From the IMG/VR virus record IMGVR_UViG_3300037467_000821, positions 3,162 through 67,161 of that record: 64,000 nt of DNA, one strand, 5' to 3'. Made by a program: the position numbers and the translations under genes. Position 1 is the first letter of the stretch. Each line of letters begins with the position of its first letter. Source of the stretch: a virus (lineage: Duplodnaviria > Caudoviricetes). This document shows positions 3,031-26,233 of the stretch, piece after piece. The notes under the pieces were generated by a model. That model had not been told where the DNA came from. It searched no databases and saw nothing but the letters and a program-made list of their open reading frames with translations.

Positions 3031-3311
3031 ACAAGAGGATCATCGTGGCCCTGGCAGCCGTCCTCGGGTTCGTGCTGCTGAGCGCGGAGGGCTGCGCGCA
3101 GAAGCGGATCGGCATCGTCAACGACGTTGTCGGCCCGCCGCTCTCGAACACTCTCGGCTGCAACGCCAACAAGGGCGGCAACTGGAGCATCAGCGTCGAC
3201 CCCGACGGCCACGAGGGTGAGTCCATCGACGAGCGGGCGAAGTACCGGCAGCACTTCTGCGTGACCGAGCCCCAGGCCAAGAAGTACAAGTCGGGGAGCG
3301 TGTACCCGTGA
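3027..3311 (+). CDS. lipoprotein (94 aa)
   Basis: Signal peptide ending AEGC; two further Cys. Confidence 0.7.
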   Translation: MNKRIIVALAAVLGFVLLSAEGCAQKRIGIVNDVVGPPLSNTLGCNANKGGNWSISVDPDGHEGESIDERAKYRQHFCVTEPQAKKYKSGSVYP

Positions 3312-15354: not shown

Positions 15355-15453
15355 TAGGGTAGGGGTGCCGCGCGGGCCAGAGCTAGACGGGCGCGGCCAA
15401 GTGGGTAAACGCCGCCAGCAGCCCCTGCTCCACACTGGACGGAGGACCAGTGT
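15355..15453 (+). promoter_or_regulatory. TAGGGTAGGG promoter-like motif and RBS/start-codon hairpin
   Basis: Motif 15355-15364; ACACTGG/CCAGTGT stem (15432-38/15447-53) buries the GTG start with GGAGG in the loop. Confidence 0.5.
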
Positions 15454-15989
15454 TCACTCTGTTGCCCTACAAGGGCTACATGAAGACCGCCGAGTGCATG
15501 ACTGACTGGGACCTGAAGTCCCAGCTCTGGACGGTCAGCAACATCTTCCGAGGGCCGCGATTCACCGAGCACTCGATGATCCCTGGTATGTGGAAGGGAT
15601 ACATCTTCCAGCTGGTCTGCTACGGCTTGTCTCTCAGCTGGCACGCGCAGCAGCGTGGCCTGGAGGGGTGGCCCAAGGAAACCAAGCACATCGCGCAGTT
15701 TCGCCACATCAAGGACTCTTCGTCCAAGCCGCCGTGGATCGGCGATCCCTGGGTGCACCGGAGCCATCGGTCCCGCCTCCTTGGGCGGGAGGATTCAGAG
15801 CATTACGAGCCGCTGTTTCCCGGAACGCCGCTGAAGATGCCTACGATCTGGCCGAAGCTGGACGACAGCGACAGCCGGGGCTACAAGCTCTACGTCGACG
15901 TCGGCGATAAGTGGCTCGTCGATCGCAAGCTGTACTTCATGCCCGAGGGCATCTACCTCGGCAAGGACCGGGAGGTACTGGAAGAATGA
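15450..15989 (+). CDS. MSMEG_6728 / pyrimidine-dimer DNA glycosylase-like protein (divergent)
   Basis: MFTLLPY start, MWKGY, PPWIGDPWVHRSHRSRLL, EHYEPLFP motifs. Confidence 0.75.
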   Translation: MFTLLPYKGYMKTAECMTDWDLKSQLWTVSNIFRGPRFTEHSMIPGMWKGYIFQLVCYGLSLSWHAQQRGLEGWPKETKHIAQFRHIKDSSSKPPWIGDPWVHRSHRSRLLGREDSEHYEPLFPGTPLKMPTIWPKLDDSDSRGYKLYVDVGDKWLVDRKLYFMPEGIYLGKDREVLEE

Positions 15990-16336
15990 GCCAGCGACAC
16001 AAGATCACGTGGTTCAAGCGGGACCACGGCGACAAGTGGCAGTGGCAGGGTTTCGAGGAGGCGCTGCAGACCGACGACGACGTCACGAATTGGTTCGACG
16101 GTCTCATCAAGCAGTACGGCGACGACGCGCCGGAATCCCCGGAGATCTTCGTTCTCGACCTGGAGCACCTGGACGAGCTGAGCGGCGCGTACGAGCCCGG
16201 CGAGGCCGAGATCGAGCTCCAGCTGCTGCGCGGCTGGCTGGAGGAGGTGGTCGACATCGACAGCATCACCGTCGAGGAGGAGTTCGACGAGTACCGCGCC
16301 CGCAAGATCTCGGAGGCACAGGAGGTCAACGAGTGA
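15986..16336 (+). CDS. acidic hypothetical protein (116 aa)
   Basis: ATGA coupling. Confidence 0.75.
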   Translation: MSQRHKITWFKRDHGDKWQWQGFEEALQTDDDVTNWFDGLIKQYGDDAPESPEIFVLDLEHLDELSGAYEPGEAEIELQLLRGWLEEVVDIDSITVEEEFDEYRARKISEAQEVNE

Positions 16337-17130
16337 GGGTCGCAATCCTGGGCTGCGGTCCTGCAGGTCTGATGGCGGCACACGCCGCTGTCATCGAGGG
16401 CCACGAGGTTGACATCATCTCCAAGCGTCGCAAGTCCGAGATGTTCGGCGCGCAGTACCTGCACAAGCCGATCCCGAGCCTGCCCGAGGTTTCCAGCGGT
16501 ATCGTCTTGTACAGGCTGGAGGACGGTACGCACGAGGAGTACCGGCTGAAGGTCTACGGCCATGAGTTCGGCGGCCAGGTCAGTACGCAGCAGTTCGGAG
16601 AGCCGCATGACGCCTGGGACATCCGTGCGACGTACAACTCCCTCTGGGATCTGTATTTCGAACGGATCAAGTCCGCCGAGTGGGATCGGAGCAACTCGCA
16701 TGTGCTCACCGAGCAGATCGTCGTGAACTACGACATGGTGATCAGCTCGCTTCCCCGCCCGGTGCTGTGCTTCAACCCGCAGCACCAGTTCGCCTCGAAG
16801 AAGATCTGGGCTGTCGGTGACGCTCCGGAGCGCGGCGTGTTCGTACCTTTCAGGGTGGAGAACATGAACGTGATCTGCAGCGCCTCTCCGGAAGTTGGCT
16901 GGTACCGCGCCTCGAACATCTTCGGGTACGGCACCGTGGAGTGGGCTCTCCGGAAGAAGCCGCCGGTCGCGGGCGTGTCCGTGGTAGTCAAGCCTCTGGC
17001 CACCGACTGCGATTGCTGGCCGATGATCAGGCACGTCGGCCGATACGGCAAGTGGAAGAAGGGCGTGTTGTCTCACACCGCGTACTTCGATACCCTCGAC
17101 TACGTCGTCAAGGGAGTTTTCATCCAGTGA
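16333..17130 (+). CDS. FAD-dependent oxidoreductase (265 aa)
   Basis: Rossmann VAILGCGPAGLMAA and C-terminal VGRYGKW. Confidence 0.85.
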   Translation: MRVAILGCGPAGLMAAHAAVIEGHEVDIISKRRKSEMFGAQYLHKPIPSLPEVSSGIVLYRLEDGTHEEYRLKVYGHEFGGQVSTQQFGEPHDAWDIRATYNSLWDLYFERIKSAEWDRSNSHVLTEQIVVNYDMVISSLPRPVLCFNPQHQFASKKIWAVGDAPERGVFVPFRVENMNVICSASPEVGWYRASNIFGYGTVEWALRKKPPVAGVSVVVKPLATDCDCWPMIRHVGRYGKWKKGVLSHTAYFDTLDYVVKGVFIQ

Positions 17131-17795
17131 GACACAACGGCGAAGGCCCGGTGATCGGGCTCGATGTGGACGGTACGCTCGGTGACTACCACGGGCATTT
17201 CCTGCGGTTCGCAGAGGGGTGGCTGGGAAGGGAGATGCCCGACCCTGTCACGATCAATCCGGGCCTCCCGTTGCACAAGTTCATGAAAACCAGCAAGAGC
17301 ACCTACCGCAAGATCAAGCTGGCTTACCGCGAAGGCGGACTGAAGCGCTCGATGCCGTGCTACGAAGGAGCCCGGGATTTGGCGTACCGGCTGCGCCAGT
17401 GGCAGTGCGAGGTATGGATCTGCACCTCAAGGCCGTACCTGGCACACGGCCCGATCGTCGGCGACACACAACACTGGCTCCGACGTAACAAGATCCAGCA
17501 CGATAACATCATCTGGGGCGAACACAAGTACCGTACGCTCCGGAAGATGGCGGGCAACCGCGTGGTGGGTGTGCTGGAGGACCTGCCGGTGATGGTTCGG
17601 CAGGCCACGGACAACAAGATTCCGGTGCTCCTTCGCACACAGCCGTATAACCGCTGGCTGGAGGAAGTACCTCCCGTTCAGCTGATGGGATCGGGGCTAG
17701 ACGTTCCGCCGGTCATGCGTGTAGATGACCTATGGCAGGCCATCGGCGGATTCGCCACTCTCGTGGAGAAATGGAAGCGAGAGAACATTGCCTGA
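17127..17795 (+). CDS. HAD-superfamily phosphatase (5'-nucleotidase-like)
   Basis: GLDVDGTL motif I, CTSRP motif II, LEDLP motif IV. Confidence 0.85.
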   Translation: MRHNGEGPVIGLDVDGTLGDYHGHFLRFAEGWLGREMPDPVTINPGLPLHKFMKTSKSTYRKIKLAYREGGLKRSMPCYEGARDLAYRLRQWQCEVWICTSRPYLAHGPIVGDTQHWLRRNKIQHDNIIWGEHKYRTLRKMAGNRVVGVLEDLPVMVRQATDNKIPVLLRTQPYNRWLEEVPPVQLMGSGLDVPPVMRVDDLWQAIGGFATLVEKWKRENIA

Positions 17796-18870
17796 TTACA
17801 GTAAGGCTAAGGAGGCCGTGAGCCAGTCCATCTCAGCTTTCGATGCCGAGCATTTCGCCGAGGCGTTGCGACGCAAGGCGATGTACCCGGCGCACAAGAA
17901 CTGCCCGCAACCGCGCTACGATTGGGCGCAGGGCCCCGTATGTGGCTGTGGAACGCCGTTGATGGGAAGCAACCCGCCAGTGGGCGGGGAAGGAGAGCAG
18001 AAGGATATGAGGGTTTACGAGAGGGATTTGGTGCAGGCACCGATTCCCGCCCTCCTCAGGGACGGCTCGTTGTTGTACCTCCCGGGAAAGGGCTGGTTCC
18101 GGTTCGACGGCAATCTCTCCAGCGGATGCTGGCAGATCCTCGTCAACCCGGACGTCGAGCCGTACTGGGGCGACCCGTTGAACCGCTGGACGCCGCTCAA
18201 GAAGGGCGAACGGGTCCAGATCATCGGAGGCGAGCACTTCGTCAACTGGCTCGGATCCGCCCAGGGCGAGATGGTGGACGGCACCGAGCAGGTGATCGTC
18301 GATGGTAAGGACTCGCCGTGGTCGTTCAGCCCGAAGTACCTGGTCCGAGTGCAGGACCTCACCGACGCGCATCTTGAAGCTACGGTCAAGGGCACATTCT
18401 CGAACATGGCCGACGAACCCATCGAGATGGGCCCTGGACACGTCATGCACAGCGTTCCTGACACCGACTACGAGCACGAGCTCGCGGCAGGTGTGTACGG
18501 GGAGGACGAGGTGAACGAGCACAAGCAGATCGTCCTGGCCCTCCCGATCAAGGCCATCCCGCCGACGGAAGCCTGCCACTTCATCTTCGGTGACGAGATC
18601 AACCAGGCTTTCCTGGTGGACTGGTGCATGCAGTTCATCAAGAAGCAGATGGACTACGGCGACAGCGCCAACGACCTCGGCATGGAGGGGCAGTACGCCG
18701 AGCTGCACCGCAAGATCGGCAAGCTCCGCCGGGCCATGTGGGAGGGCAAGCCTCTCGTCAATGAGGGACTGGAGGAAGTTCTGATGGATCTCATCGGGCA
18801 CTGCTTCCTGTCCCTTCTCTTCCTCAAGAGGCCGAGCATCACTCGTTACAAGAAGGGAAGCAACAAGTGA
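17788..18870 (+). CDS. multidomain protein with C-terminal Nmad1/DUF1599 (all-alpha NTP pyrophosphohydrolase-like) domain
   Basis: FIKKQMDYG...RKIGKL...EEVLMDLIGH; start codon uncertain. Confidence 0.7.
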   Translation: MPDYSKAKEAVSQSISAFDAEHFAEALRRKAMYPAHKNCPQPRYDWAQGPVCGCGTPLMGSNPPVGGEGEQKDMRVYERDLVQAPIPALLRDGSLLYLPGKGWFRFDGNLSSGCWQILVNPDVEPYWGDPLNRWTPLKKGERVQIIGGEHFVNWLGSAQGEMVDGTEQVIVDGKDSPWSFSPKYLVRVQDLTDAHLEATVKGTFSNMADEPIEMGPGHVMHSVPDTDYEHELAAGVYGEDEVNEHKQIVLALPIKAIPPTEACHFIFGDEINQAFLVDWCMQFIKKQMDYGDSANDLGMEGQYAELHRKIGKLRRAMWEGKPLVNEGLEEVLMDLIGHCFLSLLFLKRPSITRYKKGSNK

Positions 18871-19475
18871 AGGCTCTTCCGATTTGGGGTGGTCGTCTCA
18901 CCGAGGAGGACGACAACCCGATGGGATTGATCCAGTTCGCGCTCGATCGCAAGATTCCGGACTGGGTGGAAGCTGACCTTTCGAAGCCGGTGATCGACAT
19001 CGGTCCGGGTACCAAGTTCAACCAGATGGCCGACAAGATCGTCGACTACCCCGAGTTCAACCTCGACGGCCAGCTCTCGGTGGAGGTCGAGTGGACATCG
19101 GAATCGGGGATCACCGCGAGTGGCCGAGACCCGTTGCCGTTCGGTAAGGACGAGGTCGGCGGCATCTTCGCGATCAACGTCCTGGAGCACCTCTGGGATC
19201 CGCGCCACCTGATCGACGAGGCCGCGCGTGTGCTGGCGCCGGGGTGCCCGTTCACGATCTTCGTGCCGCACCCCGACTCGGTGATGTACAAGCAGGATCT
19301 CGACCACAAGAGCCGCTTCGTCCTGGACACCTGGGACAACTACCTGAACAGCCCCTACTACGAGAAGGGGCGTAGCCGTCCGCCTCTGCGGGTCGGCTTC
19401 AACATGATCATGGCCGTCAAGGAGGACAACGTCGGCATCCTCACCCAGCTGATCAAGACGGGAGAGCCGCGATGA
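18867..19475 (+). CDS. class I SAM-dependent methyltransferase (Methyltransf_11-like)
   Basis: IDIGPG, LPF, NVLEHL, EAARVLAPG motifs. Confidence 0.8.
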   Translation: MKALPIWGGRLTEEDDNPMGLIQFALDRKIPDWVEADLSKPVIDIGPGTKFNQMADKIVDYPEFNLDGQLSVEVEWTSESGITASGRDPLPFGKDEVGGIFAINVLEHLWDPRHLIDEAARVLAPGCPFTIFVPHPDSVMYKQDLDHKSRFVLDTWDNYLNSPYYEKGRSRPPLRVGFNMIMAVKEDNVGILTQLIKTGEPR

Positions 19476-19660
19476 GCGAGGAGAAGAGCAAGGACGACCG
19501 GACCGAGGGGCAGAAGGAGCTCGACGAGGCGCTGTACCGCGTCCGGGTCGAGCTCGTCGGCGCGGTCGGTGACGTCATCAAGGCGTTGACGCCAGTCTTT
19601 TCGGAGGCCAACAAGGTCATCCAGGCGCTCGTGAAGATCTCTCGGGAGGGCAGGAAGTGA
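19472..19660 (+). CDS. hypothetical protein (62 aa)
   Basis: ATGA coupling. Confidence 0.7.
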   Translation: MSEEKSKDDRTEGQKELDEALYRVRVELVGAVGDVIKALTPVFSEANKVIQALVKISREGRK

Positions 19661-20385
19661 AGCACGGACTGATCGTCGGCGGCAAGTCCGAGGGCGGGAT
19701 CGGGCAGGCCTGCGAGAGCTGGTTCTCGGTCGACCCACGCTTCAACAGCGTGAACTGGTACGTGCCGTCCGCGGAGGAGCTGGATGTCCGAAACGACAAC
19801 CACATCAACGACTACATCGAGCGCGCCGACGAGCACGGAGTCAGCGGCTTCGACTACGTCGTGTACGCGGCGGGGGTGAACGGGCTCTGCTGGGCAGACG
19901 AGCTCTACATGCTCGAGATGGTCGACCTGTTCAAGGTCAACGTGTTCGGCTTCATTTCGCTGCTCGGGCAGATCCGGGCAACCTGGCCGGGGAAGAACTT
20001 CTCGGCCGTGGCGATCTCGTCGGACGCCGCCTACACGCCGATGCGCGGATCGGTGAACTACTGCGCCAGCAAGGCTGCTCTCGACATGGCAGTCAAGACG
20101 CTGGCACGGGAGTGGAACGTTCCGGAAGAGCTCGAGAAGGGTTCCGTCCGGGTCAACGCCGTTGCGCCGGGCATGGTGGAAGACACACCCATGTCCAGGT
20201 ACATCGAGGAGACGGTGCCCTCGTTCCGAGGCTGGACGGCGGAGAAGGCGCTCGCCTACGAGCAGAGCATGCAGCCGATGGGTCGCCGAGCCGACAAGGC
20301 CGAGGTGGCCCACCTGGTCGCCGACGTCCTGTACGGCCCGAACTACCTCAACGGCGCCATCGTCCCGCTGACGGGCGCCAAGTAG
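19657..20385 (+). CDS. SDR-family NAD(P)-dependent oxidoreductase
   Basis: GGxxxGGIG, YAAG, ISSDAA, YCASK (YxxxK), VNAVAPG. Confidence 0.92.
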   Translation: MKHGLIVGGKSEGGIGQACESWFSVDPRFNSVNWYVPSAEELDVRNDNHINDYIERADEHGVSGFDYVVYAAGVNGLCWADELYMLEMVDLFKVNVFGFISLLGQIRATWPGKNFSAVAISSDAAYTPMRGSVNYCASKAALDMAVKTLAREWNVPEELEKGSVRVNAVAPGMVEDTPMSRYIEETVPSFRGWTAEKALAYEQSMQPMGRRADKAEVAHLVADVLYGPNYLNGAIVPLTGAK

Positions 20386-21155: not shown

Positions 21156-24100
21156 ATGGAGTACGTCTCTCTTCACCACCACAGCACGTTCAGCTACATG
21201 GACGGCTATGGCACTCCGGACGAGCACGTCGCTAGGGCTGCGGAGCTCGGGATGACGGCTCTGGCGCTGACCGAACACGGCAACGTCTCCTCGCACGTCA
21301 AGCTTGAGAAGGCGGCTAACGCCGCTGGCATCAAGCCGATCTATGGCGCTGAGCTCTACACCGCGCCTGGAAGGCACCGGTCGAAATGGCACCTCACCGC
21401 CCTGGCGGAAACGCAGGAGGGCTACCAGAACCTGAACCGGATCGTCAGCCGCTCGTGGTCCGAGAACTTCTACCAGTGGCCCACCGCTACCGCCGAGATG
21501 ATCCGCGAGCACAGCTCTGGCCTGATATTGACGTCCGGTTGCGCCGACTCGCTGCTCAGCTGTACCTTGCTGGGCGGGAAGAGCAATGGCGAGAAGCGTA
21601 CGACCGCTACATCGGACGACATGAAGGCAGCCGAGGGCGTCATCCGGTACTTCCAGGATTTGGTTGGCAAGGACAACTACTTCTTGGAAGTACAGCAGTT
21701 TCCCGAGCTGGAACGCACGTGCACGCTGAATCCTGCCTTCGCAGAGTTGTCTGCGAGGACGGGGGCACCCCTGGTCGCTACGGCGGACTGCCACTACCCG
21801 TACCCGGACGACAACGAGATGCAGAAGATCTTGCACGCTGCAGGTCGTGGTCTCGGGACGGTGGCGAAGGCGGAGGCGGGGTGGGAATACGACATTCGGT
21901 TGACGCCACCGACCAGCGACCAGCAAATCCTGCAGGCCCTGGTTGGTACCGGTTTGACAGCTTCGCAGGCGTGGCAGTCAATCGAATCTACGAAGAACAT
22001 CGCGATGCGTTCTTCCGTCGTCTTGCCCAAGAACGAGCTGCTGCGTTTCCCTCTGTCCGTCGGATACAATTCACCCAAAGATCTCCTCTGGGACAAGATC
22101 CGGGATGGATGGAAGTATCGTATGCGGACGAACCGGGTCTTCCGCCGAATGATGGCGGACCCGGCGATGAAGCAGGCCGCATCTGACAAGCTGTTTTACG
22201 AGATGTCGGTGATCGGCGACAAGGACGGCTTCTGCGACTACTTCCTGATGCTAGCCCAGGTGGTCGCATGGGCAAAGGATCAGGGCATCGCCGTCGGGCC
22301 CGCGCGTGGCAGTGCGGCGGCGAGCCTGGTTCTGTTCCTGATCCGCATCACCGAGGTCAATCCCTTGATGTTCCCGACGATGGTGTTCGAGCGGTTCATG
22401 GACGTGACCCGCCTAGACATGCCCGACGTCGACCTGGATTTCGCCGATGACCGGCGGGAAGAAGTTCGGCAATTTCTGGTCCGCACGTGGGGTATTGACC
22501 GTGTCGCCAACATCGGGAACTTCGTACGGTACAAGGGAAAGAACTCGATCGACGATGTCTCCCGGGTGCACATGATCCCCAAGTGGCAGGCGGAGATCGT
22601 AAAGTCTCGGATCATCGAGAGGTCGGGCGGTGACTCGCGAGCCTCCGACTCGCTGGAAGACACCTTCAAGACATTTCCGCAGGCACAGGCGGTGCTGGAC
22701 CAGCGGCCGGAGCTCGGCTATGCCATCCGCCTGGAGGGCAACTACCGGGGGATGTCGGTGCACGCGGCCGGTATCGTCATCAGCAACAACCCGATCTCCG
22801 ACACGTGCGCCATGTACGAGCGCGAGGTCAAGGGCGAGCCGCGTGCCGTGTTGGCGTATGACAAGAAGGACGCCGAGTACCTCGGTATGCTCAAGATGGA
22901 CTTTCTTGGGCTGTCCACGATGGGCATGATCGCCATCGCGTTGGACCTGATCGGGATGAAGCTGGAGGAGCTGTATGACATCCCTCTCGACGAACCAGAG
23001 ACTCTCGCTGGTTTCAAAAGTAATGATGTTGTCGGTATTTTCCAATTCGAAGGTCGTGCCACCCGACTTGTATGTGCCGATGTCTCCCCTGACAATTTCA
23101 TGCATCTCGCGGATATCAACGCCCTTTCCCGCCCCGGGCCGCTGTTCTCCGGAATGACCGCGCAGTACGTCGAGGTCAAACACGGCCGCAAGGAAGCCGA
23201 AGCGCTGCATCCGCTGGTAGACAAGCACACCTCCTGGACCAACGGTCAGATCGTGTATCAGGAACAGGTACTCAACATCATCCGGGAGGTCGGTGGGTTC
23301 CCGGTCGCCAAGGTCGGCGACATTCGTAAGATCATCTCGCAGAAGCTCGGCGAGATGTCCTTCAACAAGATGCAGGATGAGTTCATTGACGGAGCGGCTC
23401 GTCTCCACGGTATTGACCGAGACCTGGCAGTCCGCATCTGGAAGTTCATGGTCACGTCAGCGACGTATTCATTCAACGTCGCGCACTGCGTCTCCTACAG
23501 CATGCTGGCGTTTTGGTGTATGTGGCTTAAGCGACACCATCCACTGGCTTTCTACACGGCACAGCTCCGTAAGACAGCTGAGGACAAGTGGCCGAAACTC
23601 CTGAAGGATGCCCGGAAGCACGGCGTTAATGTGCTTCCCCCGGACATCGCTATTAGCGAGGGCACCTGGGTGCCTGACTATGAGGCTGAAGCTGTACGGG
23701 CCGGTTTCACGCAGATCAAGGGGATCGGCGACAAGACTTGGGAGCGCATCGACGAGATGCGCCGAGAGGACCCGCTCGGCTTCGTCACGTGGGCGGACCT
23801 GGAGAAGGTCAAGGGCATCGGGCCCAAGACGATCGAGAAGATCGTGACGTTCTGCGAGAACCCAGACCCGTTCGGCCTGGACCGCGTTCGTGAGATCCTG
23901 AACGAGTACAGGCGCGAGCTGCGCAATCAACGCGGTGGCTGGCGCGGGTTGCCAGTGACCACGCACATGTCCGATGACATCGGTCGGCACGATTCGATCA
24001 AGGATGTCGTCTGGATGGGGATGGTCCGGAAGAAGAACTACCAGGACTATGTCGAGAACCAGCGTACCCGTACCGGTGACGAGGTCGAAGACATCCTGGC

Positions 24101-24365
24101 TCGTACCAAGGACCCACACCTCCTCACCTCGTGCGTGCTGCAGGCGTACGATGACGGTGACGAGGACGTATACCTCCGGTTCAACCGGTGGCGCTTCCCC
24201 AAGGTCAAGGACCAGATTGAATCTCTGGAACTTGACGAGCATGTCGTGCTGGTGATTGCCGACAAGAAGGACGACTTCGGCATCTCGCTACACGTGAAGC
24301 ACCTCATCGTCATCGAGCCAGATGACGAGGATGAGGTGGACGAACTAGAGGAAGAGGAAATGTGA
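21156..24365 (+). CDS. dnaE: DNA polymerase III alpha subunit (family C) with PHP domain
   Basis: HHHSTFSYMDG, TEHGN, ADCHY (PHP); GPARGSAAASL; MPDVDLDF; YQEQ; YSFNVAH. Confidence 0.97.
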   Translation: MEYVSLHHHSTFSYMDGYGTPDEHVARAAELGMTALALTEHGNVSSHVKLEKAANAAGIKPIYGAELYTAPGRHRSKWHLTALAETQEGYQNLNRIVSRSWSENFYQWPTATAEMIREHSSGLILTSGCADSLLSCTLLGGKSNGEKRTTATSDDMKAAEGVIRYFQDLVGKDNYFLEVQQFPELERTCTLNPAFAELSARTGAPLVATADCHYPYPDDNEMQKILHAAGRGLGTVAKAEAGWEYDIRLTPPTSDQQILQALVGTGLTASQAWQSIESTKNIAMRSSVVLPKNELLRFPLSVGYNSPKDLLWDKIRDGWKYRMRTNRVFRRMMADPAMKQAASDKLFYEMSVIGDKDGFCDYFLMLAQVVAWAKDQGIAVGPARGSAAASLVLFLIRITEVNPLMFPTMVFERFMDVTRLDMPDVDLDFADDRREEVRQFLVRTWGIDRVANIGNFVRYKGKNSIDDVSRVHMIPKWQAEIVKSRIIERSGGDSRASDSLEDTFKTFPQAQAVLDQRPELGYAIRLEGNYRGMSVHAAGIVISNNPISDTCAMYEREVKGEPRAVLAYDKKDAEYLGMLKMDFLGLSTMGMIAIALDLIGMKLEELYDIPLDEPETLAGFKSNDVVGIFQFEGRATRLVCADVSPDNFMHLADINALSRPGPLFSGMTAQYVEVKHGRKEAEALHPLVDKHTSWTNGQIVYQEQVLNIIREVGGFPVAKVGDIRKIISQKLGEMSFNKMQDEFIDGAARLHGIDRDLAVRIWKFMVTSATYSFNVAHCVSYSMLAFWCMWLKRHHPLAFYTAQLRKTAEDKWPKLLKDARKHGVNVLPPDIAISEGTWVPDYEAEAVRAGFTQIKGIGDKTWERIDEMRREDPLGFVTWADLEKVKGIGPKTIEKIVTFCENPDPFGLDRVREILNEYRRELRNQRGGWRGLPVTTHMSDDIGRHDSIKDVVWMGMVRKKNYQDYVENQRTRTGDEVEDILARTKDPHLLTSCVLQAYDDGDEDVYLRFNRWRFPKVKDQIESLELDEHVVLVIADKKDDFGISLHVKHLIVIEPDDEDEVDELEEEEM

Positions 24366-24928: not shown

Positions 24929-25218
24929 TGGCCGCGATCCTGATCATCTCCTTCTACGATGACACGCATGAGGAGATCGAGTTCAACGAGGAGAACGGCA
25001 AGTACTGGAAGCCCACGATGCAGGGGCTGATGATCAAGACGAACGGGGTTCGGGGGAGCCGCACTGTTTATCCCTGGTCCTCGATTCGCAAGTACCACAT
25101 CGAAACGGAGGTCGGTCAACGTGACCGAGAACGACTCGCAGAAGAACGAGCCCAGCAAGACCATAGCTCGGTGGGCGGACGTGGCGATGTACACGAGCAA
25201 GCCGATCCAGGCGTCTGA
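24928..25218 (+). CDS. hypothetical protein (96 aa)
   Basis: TGATG coupling; 3' end overlaps thyX. Confidence 0.65.
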   Translation: MAAILIISFYDDTHEEIEFNEENGKYWKPTMQGLMIKTNGVRGSRTVYPWSSIRKYHIETEVGQRDRERLAEERAQQDHSSVGGRGDVHEQADPGV

Positions 25219-26233
25219 CGGCCCCAGGGCCGTGTTGCTTGCGGGACCGGCTGACCCGCTCGGGCTGATCGCCGCGCAGGCGAAGACGTACGTCGGTGAG
25301 TTCGTGGACGACCTGGCTGACATCACCGACGACGAGCGTCGGCACTACCTCGGAGAGATCCAGAAGACCGCGCTGGCGATGCCGCTGGAGGCGGTGCTGC
25401 TGAACTTCTCGATCACCGGCGTCACGCGCTCGTTCACCCACCAGATGGTGCGCCAGAGGACCGCCGCATACGCGCAGGAGAGCCTGCGATTCTCTGTGGT
25501 GGAGGACGGCTTCACCGACCGCGTGGCCCTCCCGCCGAGCCTGATGGGCACCACGGCGGTCTATCAGGAGCTCCTGGAGAAGGAGAAGCACGACCAGTCC
25601 TACGGTGGCGGATGGACCCCGTCTTCGCTCCGGGAAGGACTGGAGCGCGCCATGGGGAAGCAGCCGCGCGAGGAGCGGTGGCGGCAGAAGTGGGACCACG
25701 CGCTGGAGGTTCTGCAGCAGACATACGGCGAGCTGATCAACGATGGCATGCCTGCCGAAGAGGCCCGGGGCCTGCTGCCGCACAACATCACGACCCGCAT
25801 CAAGTACAACACCAACCTGCGGGCGCTGCTGGAGCACATCGGCCTCCGGACCTGCACGCAGGCGCAGTTCGAGTGGCGGGGCGTCGCGTTCCAGATGATG
25901 CTGGCGCTGCGCGAGTACGGGCGCGGGCAGGTTTACCGTGACACCTCCTACGACGATCACGGCACGCCTCGGGTGGTCCTGCGCGACTCCGCCTGGCAGT
26001 ACGACGCCATCGCCGAGCTGTTCTCGCCGATCTGCTACCGCAAGGGCAAGTGCACGATGATGGCCTCGTTCGATCGCAAGTGCTCCATCCGGGGGCGCGT
26101 CGAGGCGAACGCGTCCATCAACCGGCCCAGCACCGAGTGGGACAAGCCCCGAGAGGCGACCGCGCCCGACGACGTCTACATCGAGCCCATCCGGCCGTCA
26201 GAGTGGATGCTCGACCCGGGCGCGGCGCGGTGA
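25121..26233 (+). CDS. thyX: ThyX-like flavin-dependent enzyme (divergent thymidylate synthase)
   Basis: GVTRSFTHQMVRQRTAAYAQESLRF (RHR-x7-S variant), ARGLLP, NLRALLEHIGLRTC..AQFEW. Confidence 0.88.
   Translation: MTENDSQKNEPSKTIARWADVAMYTSKPIQASDGPRAVLLAGPADPLGLIAAQAKTYVGEFVDDLADITDDERRHYLGEIQKTALAMPLEAVLLNFSITGVTRSFTHQMVRQRTAAYAQESLRFSVVEDGFTDRVALPPSLMGTTAVYQELLEKEKHDQSYGGGWTPSSLREGLERAMGKQPREERWRQKWDHALEVLQQTYGELINDGMPAEEARGLLPHNITTRIKYNTNLRALLEHIGLRTCTQAQFEWRGVAFQMMLALREYGRGQVYRDTSYDDHGTPRVVLRDSAWQYDAIAELFSPICYRKGKCTMMASFDRKCSIRGRVEANASINRPSTEWDKPREATAPDDVYIEPIRPSEWMLDPGAAR

Follow-up and report, generated by a model that had tools for sequence, protein, structure and literature searches.

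Carbon transfer by a flavin has its textbook example in ThyX, an enzyme that is also a target for drugs. In the published account of the enzyme, Tyr91 and Ser88 (Thermotoga maritima numbering, used throughout) are described as strictly conserved, and His53 stacks on the pterin of folate and is hydrogen-bonded to Tyr91 and Asn85. The roles of His53, Asn85 and Tyr91 are given as pterin stacking, pocket gating and general acid for methylene transfer, and mutation of Tyr91 made flavin oxidation 1000-fold slower (PMC11940539). Thymidine hypermodification in several phages is initiated by deoxyuridine monophosphate (dUMP) hydroxymethylases derived from ThyA (PMC8989533, PMC5977210). In the DNA of the Pbunavirus phages F8 and 14-1, about a quarter of T is replaced by thymidine derivatives whose masses are 362 and 390 Da and which resemble a sugar alcohol or an aldopentose in character, and the responsible genes are unassigned (PMC12191111); later papers on Pbunavirus add no gene assignment. 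Here we analyse a 64,000-nucleotide stretch of phage DNA (hereafter the window), positions 3,162 to 67,161 of the IMG/VR record IMGVR_UViG_3300037467_000821, which covers almost the whole of a complete 67,161-bp phage record with GC content of about 0.62 and with its genes on the + strand, as are all genes and gene parts of the window given below. The subject is a ThyX-like flavoprotein gene at 25121-26233, coding for 370 amino acids (aa) and of the L/F/Q type without His53 and Tyr91. We find that this type appears to form a large viral group that has lost the residues of the folate and nicotinamide adenine dinucleotide phosphate (NADPH) pocket and has acquired a second flavoprotein, FADox, which is encoded at 16333-17130 in the window.

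The 370-aa protein was matched by Pfam Thy1 (PF02511) with E-value 3.7e-31 and also by the PHROG thymidylate-synthase families. Its AlphaFold model, for which 29 homologues were the input, has a pLDDT of 80.5, and Foldseek paired the model with T. maritima ThyX 1o26 at probability 1.0 and target TM score 0.71. The open reading frame (ORF) 25121-26233 has both a Thy1 domain and the ThyX fold. We take the GTG at 25121 to be the true start because GGAGG lies 9 nucleotides (nt) 5' of it and because a WAD motif that is conserved among the homologues precedes Met23. The automated gene call (P0001) begins wrongly at Met23, and public automated calls shorten both flavoproteins, the Atlas record of FADox beginning at a Met within the GxGxxG motif.

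In order to assign the active-site residues, the protein and a 29-sequence profile were aligned with HMMER to 1kq4/8rep, and the T. maritima numbering was confirmed by counting. Conservation in the family was counted over 83 long-form members. The residues that are kept are Q75 (Q108 in this protein), R78 (R111), R80 (R113), S88 (S121, codon 25481-25483), R90 (R123), R147 (R216), R174 (R243, codon 25847-25849) and E58 (E90). Those that are altered are H53 to L85 (codon 25373-25375), H79 to Q112 (the RHR motif thereby becoming R-Q-R, codons 25451-25459), N85 to A118 (25472-25474), Y91 to F124 (25490-25492), H178 to Q247 (25859-25861), R74 to H107 and E86 to Q119. An earlier note on this DNA, based on alignment by eye, had reported that the equivalents of Q75, R78, S88, R90 and R174 are retained, that RHR has become RQR and Y91 has become F, and that His53 is lost from the HxxPFEH segment. 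The HMMER alignments agree with the first statement, the dUMP contacts being present in 83/83 members, and give the same mapping for the others, with no equivalent of His53 restored.

The dUMP-binding residues Q75, R78, S88, R90, R147 and R174 are conserved in all 83 long-form members. At the altered positions, Leu stands for His53 in 81/83, Phe for Tyr91 in 83/83 and Gln for His79 in 75/83; His never occupies the centre of RHR, and the ThyX signature RHR-x7-S reads RQR-x7-S with the Ser retained. In the site for flavin adenine dinucleotide (FAD), R78, R80, E58 and R165 are retained, the N163 position is N, D or S, and both H79 and H178 are replaced by Gln. The trio His53/Tyr91/Asn85 of the folate/NADPH pocket reads L85/F124/A118, so that the canonical residues of the pocket are absent from this protein. 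The central claim of the earlier note, that the folate site appears lost and the dUMP and flavin residues are kept, is borne out, with most of the FAD contacts in place, and the state is fixed in the 83 members. With this fixation, the exchange of a functional triad for hydrophobic residues of similar size is neither drift nor chance, and the new state is under purifying selection.

The same pattern has a reading in which no carbon is transferred at all. The enzyme might act on a uracil nucleotide in another way, such as conversion of dUMP to its dihydro form or hydroxylation, or it might be a non-catalytic subunit that binds dUMP and FAD and serves FADox or the replicase as a regulator or scaffold. 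In its favour, the nucleotide and flavin sites are kept although the residues proposed as acid catalysts of carbon transfer are gone, and hydride transfer from a flavin that stacks on uracil, which is established ThyX chemistry, would be feasible in principle. On the other hand, the strict conservation of the active-site Arg residues, Gln75 and Ser88 over 83 members argues for catalysis on the uracil nucleotide, and we know of no precedent. We consider this reading improbable.

We then looked at the distribution of the altered type. By tblastn, 113 full-length homologues of 36-52% identity were found, in mycobacteriophages of Cluster D (Hawkeye, Gumball) and in phages of Gordonia and Microbacterium, and all of them carry the annotation 'ThyX-like thymidylate synthase'. 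Large protein databases hold more than 100 clusters at 50% identity with E-values of 1e-30 or lower, and related stretches in IMG/VR number at least 171 for the long form and at least 481 for the short forms. At the nucleotide level, megablast matched the region to none of the phage records searched. Among 185,579 prokaryotic species (one genome each) the long form was found on a single fragmentary contig of a metagenome-assembled genome (MAG). The next-nearest relatives are short ThyX-like proteins of 210-300 aa, of which 80 viral and 80 cellular loci were compared, with 80 viral loci carrying canonical ThyX as control. All 80 short viral relatives are without His53 (Leu or Ile instead) and without Tyr91 (Phe, Val, Thr, Ala or Met instead). 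Among the cellular relatives, 77/80 keep H53/RHR/Y91 and only 3 MAG contigs bear the form without His53 and Tyr91 (His/Tyr-less), and 80/80 of the canonical-type viral controls keep these residues. In 4/5 genomes tested, no thymidylate synthase other than this cellular canonical relative is present.

In a tree of 94 sequences, one branch with SH-aLRT support 100 parts the canonical proteins from all His/Tyr-less forms. Within the latter there are an L/F clade (support 93), which includes the long forms of this window, and an I/x clade (support 99), which includes the 'ThyX' of PB1-like Pseudomonas phages, Escherichia coli phage FEC19, Cronobacter phage Ss1 and Rhizobium phage TM30. As judged from these sets, the His/Tyr-less forms are a large virus-only group. 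In the I-type proteins of Rhizobium phage TM30 (L247:2788-3588) and Cronobacter phage Ss1 (L248:3830-4546), the Cys set described below is lost and Thr stands at Ser88.

The second line of evidence is the partner gene. FADox (16333-17130, start GTG at 16333 after AGGAGG) is a 265-aa FAD-binding protein with an N-terminal GCGPAG dinucleotide-binding motif and belongs to phrog_8720 (E 1.8e-89). In Microbacterium phage NarutoRun its homologue (39% identity, E 2e-51) lies directly upstream of the ThyX-like gene. FADox was present in 61/82 long-form loci, and the remaining sequences all end at or before the intervening DnaE gene, which gives 61/61 for untruncated loci. A hidden Markov model (HMM) of the partner found it in 58/80 short-form viral loci; there it invariably precedes the ThyX-like gene on one and the same strand, in many cases by 0-150 nt. 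With the same HMM, FADox was found in 0/80 cellular loci and 0/80 canonical-viral loci. These co-occurrence counts are sensitive to locus truncation and to HMM sensitivity, and partners of the I type score weakly with the L-type HMM. In the I/x clade, an upstream protein of about 320 aa is present in 38/40 loci and is homologous to FADox (hhalign probability 98.9%, E 1.7e-17). The FADox clusters in Atlas are viral, and in 301 Actinomycetota genomes the matches to FADox were confined to the generic GxGxxG segment. The FADox alignment has no stretch conserved enough for a pattern search of viral contigs. The earlier note had named the neighbouring FAD enzyme together with a short-chain dehydrogenase (SDR) as partners; the FAD enzyme qualifies as obligate and the SDR, found in 54/163 loci, does not belong to the core. 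By these counts FADox is the obligate companion of the His/Tyr-less ThyX, always lying 5' of it in the same orientation, and the loss of the folate/NADPH pocket residues coincides with its gain.

The model of FADox (pLDDT 96) is a two-domain FAD fold. Its best structural match is UDP-galactopyranose mutase (UGM; 4dsg), with Z 14.3 over 248 residues, followed at Z 11-13 by group A monooxygenases, protoporphyrinogen oxidase (PPOX) and D-amino-acid oxidase (DAAO). Pfam and PHROG scans of the neighbouring ORFs gave no significant sequence-level match of FADox to UGM.

From these observations, we favour a viral two-flavoprotein system that modifies C5 of dUMP and of which the ThyX-like protein would be the nucleotide-binding half. 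We would give this reading a probability of about 0.45. In such a system dUMP would stack on the reduced flavin of the ThyX-like enzyme and be activated at C5. FADox would prepare or deliver the carbon unit (or the electrons), which would no longer come through the canonical folate/NADPH pocket. The product would be a C5-substituted dUMP other than plain deoxythymidine monophosphate (dTMP), either hydroxymethyl or a sugar-derived polyhydroxyalkyl, which a phosphatase of the HAD type, and in some phages an SDR and a methyltransferase, would process to the precursor from which a modified thymine of the phage DNA is made. That FADox may supply the carbon donor or the electrons formerly handled by the pocket is suggested by the coincidence of pocket loss with FADox gain while the nucleotide and flavin sites stay intact. 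A non-methyl product is favoured by the virus-only range, the canonical enzyme being retained in cells and in many phages, by the loss of the proposed acid catalysts, by the mutase/oxidase-like partner and the adjacent nucleotidase, and by the unassigned thymidine derivatives of Pbunavirus DNA. Loading of a larger aldehyde or sugar at C5 is made plausible by Pbunavirus, which has the sister module and the 362/390-Da sugar-like thymidine derivatives.

Several points weigh against this system. The fold does not single out one chemistry for FADox, its structural neighbours in the model lying within about 2 Z units of each other. Since all His/Tyr-less forms are one clade, the association with FADox counts as one evolutionary event, and it could have been co-inherited with the DnaE replication module. 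The composition of the accessory gene set differs between loci. We found no functional study of the His/Tyr-less subfamily in the literature, and in the literature covered no DNA modification is reported for Cluster D, DJ or related actinophages. The thymidine mark of Pbunavirus is confined to TG sites (PMC12191111), and this restriction, together with the replacement of about a quarter of T, points to an enzyme acting at the DNA level; a pool-level enzyme of the ThyX type alone does not explain it.

The C5-modification reading also has a more specific version. UGM forms a flavin-N5 iminium with the opened sugar, and ThyX and TrmFO form an N5-methylene iminium. The ThyX-like protein and its UGM-like partner might perform a flavin-N5 C-C alkylation that places a sugar-derived chain on C5 of dUMP to give 5-(polyhydroxyalkyl)-dUMP; this would be the origin of the Pbunavirus 362/390-Da derivatives, and the same or a related base would be expected in the Cluster D, DJ and Microbacterium actinophages. 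We regard this version as rather doubtful. By our own arithmetic, 362 Da corresponds to deoxyuridine (dU) reductively alkylated by an aldopentose and equally to 5-hydroxymethyldeoxyuridine (5-hmdU) ether-linked to a tetritol, and since both fit, the mass does not decide the chemistry.

The strongest rival is that the protein is still a thymidylate synthase which makes ordinary dTMP for the DnaE replicase, with FADox as a dedicated reductase or a helper for one-carbon loading; the altered pocket would then go with another way to reduce the flavin or to load the methylene. We hold this to be a substantial possibility, short of even odds. The complete 67-kb phage genome has no second gene that resembles a thymidylate synthase; the protein retains all dUMP and most FAD contacts, and it stands in a replication module with DnaE. 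Canonical ThyX is common in phages, so carrying a thymidylate synthase benefits them. PDB titles show that T. maritima ThyX remains able to fold and crystallise as the variants S88A, Y91F and H53A; mutation of Tyr91 slows the methylation half-reaction about 1000-fold (PMC11940539), and the I-type sister clade is often without Ser88 too. The single evolutionary event behind the FADox association and the TG-restricted Pbunavirus mark, which needs no pool enzyme, also suit ordinary dTMP synthesis. The cellular relatives suit it less well: although the canonical relative is the only thymidylate synthase in 4/5 cellular genomes tested, just the 3 MAG contigs among 80 depart from His53/RHR/Tyr91. 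A nucleotidase next door is odd for dTMP supply, and the fold of FADox is that of oxidases, monooxygenases and mutases, unlike the known flavin reductases.

The remaining genes around the pair were counted by ORF clustering over 163 loci (123 L-type and 40 I-type). The frequent accessory at 17127-17795 is a HAD-type (NT5C) nucleotidase, and its start GTG overlaps the FADox stop (GTGA, 17127-17130), suggesting translational coupling in the cassette. Together with the pair, a HAD phosphatase occurs in 69/123 loci of the L type, where it is of the NT5C kind, and in 34/40 loci of the I type, where it is of the PNKP-phosphatase kind. Further accessories in the window are an ORF at 17818-18870 whose C-terminal part of about 60 aa is weakly like DUF1599 (Nmad1) (E 0.018, with 5.6e-5 for a family member; 27/82 loci), a methyltransferase-like protein of phrog_6636 at 18867-19475 (11/82 loci) and a FabG-like SDR at 19657-20385. 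The DnaE-type replicative DNA polymerase at 21156-24365 lies between FADox and the ThyX-like gene and was present in 141/163 loci. Other recurrent companions at these loci are a DnaQ-like exonuclease and small domains of the DUF1599 or DUF3310 families. At the viral control loci with canonical ThyX, DnaE was found in 14/80, and the NT5C-type HAD nucleotidase and the SDR were, like FADox, in 0/80. The whole 67-kb genome was searched and contained no ThyA (PF00303), dCMP deaminase, dUTPase or thymidylate kinase. The Pfam and PHROG scans of the neighbouring ORFs named no 5-HMUDK, aGPT-Pplase or AADT, with no search aimed at these families.

The SDR bears on the proposal of the earlier note that the ThyX-like enzyme may attach to C5 of dUMP a larger aldehyde produced by the neighbouring SDR and FAD enzymes, giving a 5-alkyl-uracil; in this version the SDR would be an essential step. 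Each of the three viral clades has SDR genes beside the module, E. coli phage FEC19 among them, and ThyX itself takes formaldehyde on flavin N5 (structures 7ndw and 7ndz; PMC11940539). The 362-Da nucleoside would again be dU plus aldopentose after reductive alkylation. The frequency of the SDR is too low for a core partner, as which we rejected it; it is unannotated near the pair in the examined Pbunavirus and Microbacterium phage NarutoRun loci, and no aldehyde-forming logic can be read from the sequences. An SDR-dependent route would surprise us, and all readings other than C5 modification or plain dTMP, taken in combination, are unlikely.

Directly 5' of FADox lies an accessory ORF (15450-15989) that is possibly a pyrimidine DNA glycosylase like T4 endonuclease V (Pyr_excise), which we give as a lead only. 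It had an Atlas language-model feature score of 0.91 with 30/30 matches in the endonuclease V family, and no Pfam or PDB sequence match. Homologues stand in the same position in 13/80 long-form loci, including Microbacterium phage NarutoRun, and in none of the other clades, for which reason it was rejected as the DNA-level actor. As a separate observation, two GC-only palindromes are almost missing from the whole window (both strands): a Markov expectation predicts 33.6 copies of GCCGGC, of which there are 0, and 31.6 of CCGCGG, of which there is one. This scarcity is strong restriction-site avoidance, at sites without T or A. Protection specific to TG was also considered from palindrome avoidance and was rejected, as TG-containing 6-mers were less depleted than others only at p = 0.06, which is not significant.

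The long form differs from shorter relatives by a variable insertion of about 48 aa (residues ~140-187, 25538-25681), which long actinophage forms have and which T. maritima ThyX and the short viral forms are without, and by a C-terminal extension of about 105 aa past the Thy1 domain (residues ~265-370, 25913-26233), which in long forms closes with the nearly invariant EW..DP.AAR. The AlphaFold pLDDT drops within the insertion. Four Cys residues, C245, C305, C311 and C321 (25853-26083), are spaced C-x59-C-x5-C-x9-C; C245 sits two residues past the R174 equivalent and the other three lie in the extension. All four are present in 75/83 members. Six members are without all four, which are replaced by S/G, E/D, R/P and S, and because the loss is joint the four act as one dispensable unit. 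The Cys-less lineage includes NarutoRun gp53 (L002:9025-10344) and also L025, L026, L029 and L033; the simultaneous replacement in it resembles the swap of a metal site for a salt bridge. The same set is found in canonical cellular ThyX, invariant in Coriobacteriia, Bathyarchaeia, Methanomassiliicoccus and other anaerobes (L165-L244; e.g. L202:5872-6555 and L184:6001-6699), so the motif is not peculiar to ORF 25121-26233. The insertion and the Cys-bearing extension seen by the earlier note are real, and the novelty that it implied for the Cys motif did not hold. The four Cys probably form one structural metal site, Zn or iron-sulphur (Fe-S); we are not aware that such a site has been described for ThyX. 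As the canonical cellular relatives share the set and are the sole thymidylate synthase in 4/5 genomes tested, it is inherited and compatible with ordinary ThyX function. An obligate Fe-S electron relay that would explain the partner was considered and dropped, since six members lose the set and keep the rest of the active site, and since canonical cellular ThyX shares the motif.

These results concern a large group annotated as 'ThyX-like thymidylate synthase' that is without residues regarded as essential and has gained a second flavoprotein as obligate partner. If it makes dTMP, the accepted ThyX mechanism may tolerate far more variation than thought, with a new route for loading carbon or electrons; if it makes a new nucleotide, phages may have retooled ThyX as they did ThyA. 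The question bears on the unassigned genes of thymine hypermodification in therapeutic Pbunavirus phages, and it is testable in easy systems such as the Mycobacterium smegmatis Cluster D phages and the Gordonia and Microbacterium SEA-PHAGES isolates. What is new here is the actinophage branch, the contrast of canonical and His/Tyr-less forms with cellular and viral controls, the homology of the two partner families and the ancestral Cys motif.

Compared to canonical ThyX (T. maritima TM0449 and Mycobacterium tuberculosis ThyX), the protein shares the fold and the six dUMP contacts and differs in the H53, N85, Y91, H79, H178 and R74 replacements, the insertion, the extension, the viral range and the FADox partner. 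The Pfam score is 109 bits, versus about 250 bits for canonical cellular relatives. The nearest cellular relatives, at about 30% identity, are the four-Cys ThyX of Coriobacteriia, Bathyarchaeia, Methanomassiliicoccus and other anaerobes, which have in common with it R.C.(Q/R)AQ ... C-x4/5-C-x8/10-C; unlike it, they keep H53, RHR, S88 and Y91, with FADox nearby in 0/80. On the side of the partner, UGM and TrmFO/MnmG are flavin-N5 covalent catalysts, and the likeness of FADox to UGM, its top structural match, is in fold only, with 265 aa for FADox against ~365-470 aligned-target residues. Bacillus phage SP-15, whose DNA has 5-dihydroxypentyl-uracil, encodes a Thy1-family protein, gp130, for which the role of a hydroxymethyluridylate synthase has been hypothesised (PMC5977210), and like the gene here it has a FabG-like SDR neighbour. 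We discarded it as a precedent that supports neither side, because its divergence prevents alignment at the motif positions and because it has no FADox homologue in the surrounding 45 kb.

The ThyA-derived dUMP hydroxymethylases of phages SPO1, PhiW-14, ViI and M6 may be a functional analogy, in which a thymidylate-synthase homologue was retooled for a non-methyl C5 group (PMC8989533, PMC5977210), although their fold is unrelated to that of the ThyX-like protein. A further related system is the I-type sister clade (PB1-like Pbunavirus, Wifcevirus FEC19 and Cronobacter phage Ss1). In FEC19, of an unrelated coliphage genus, the gp35-gp37 region (L246:3989-6437) has the flavoprotein, the ThyX-like protein, the HAD phosphatase and the FabG-like SDR consecutively, beside the polymerase. 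I-type proteins differ from the long form in having I/(V,T,A) forms, in often having lost Ser88, in being shorter without the insertion and the long C-terminus, and in having Pseudomonadota hosts. They are likewise without His53 and Tyr91, and their genes stand in the same order, FADox homologue, ThyX-like protein and HAD phosphatase, beside a DnaE-type polymerase.

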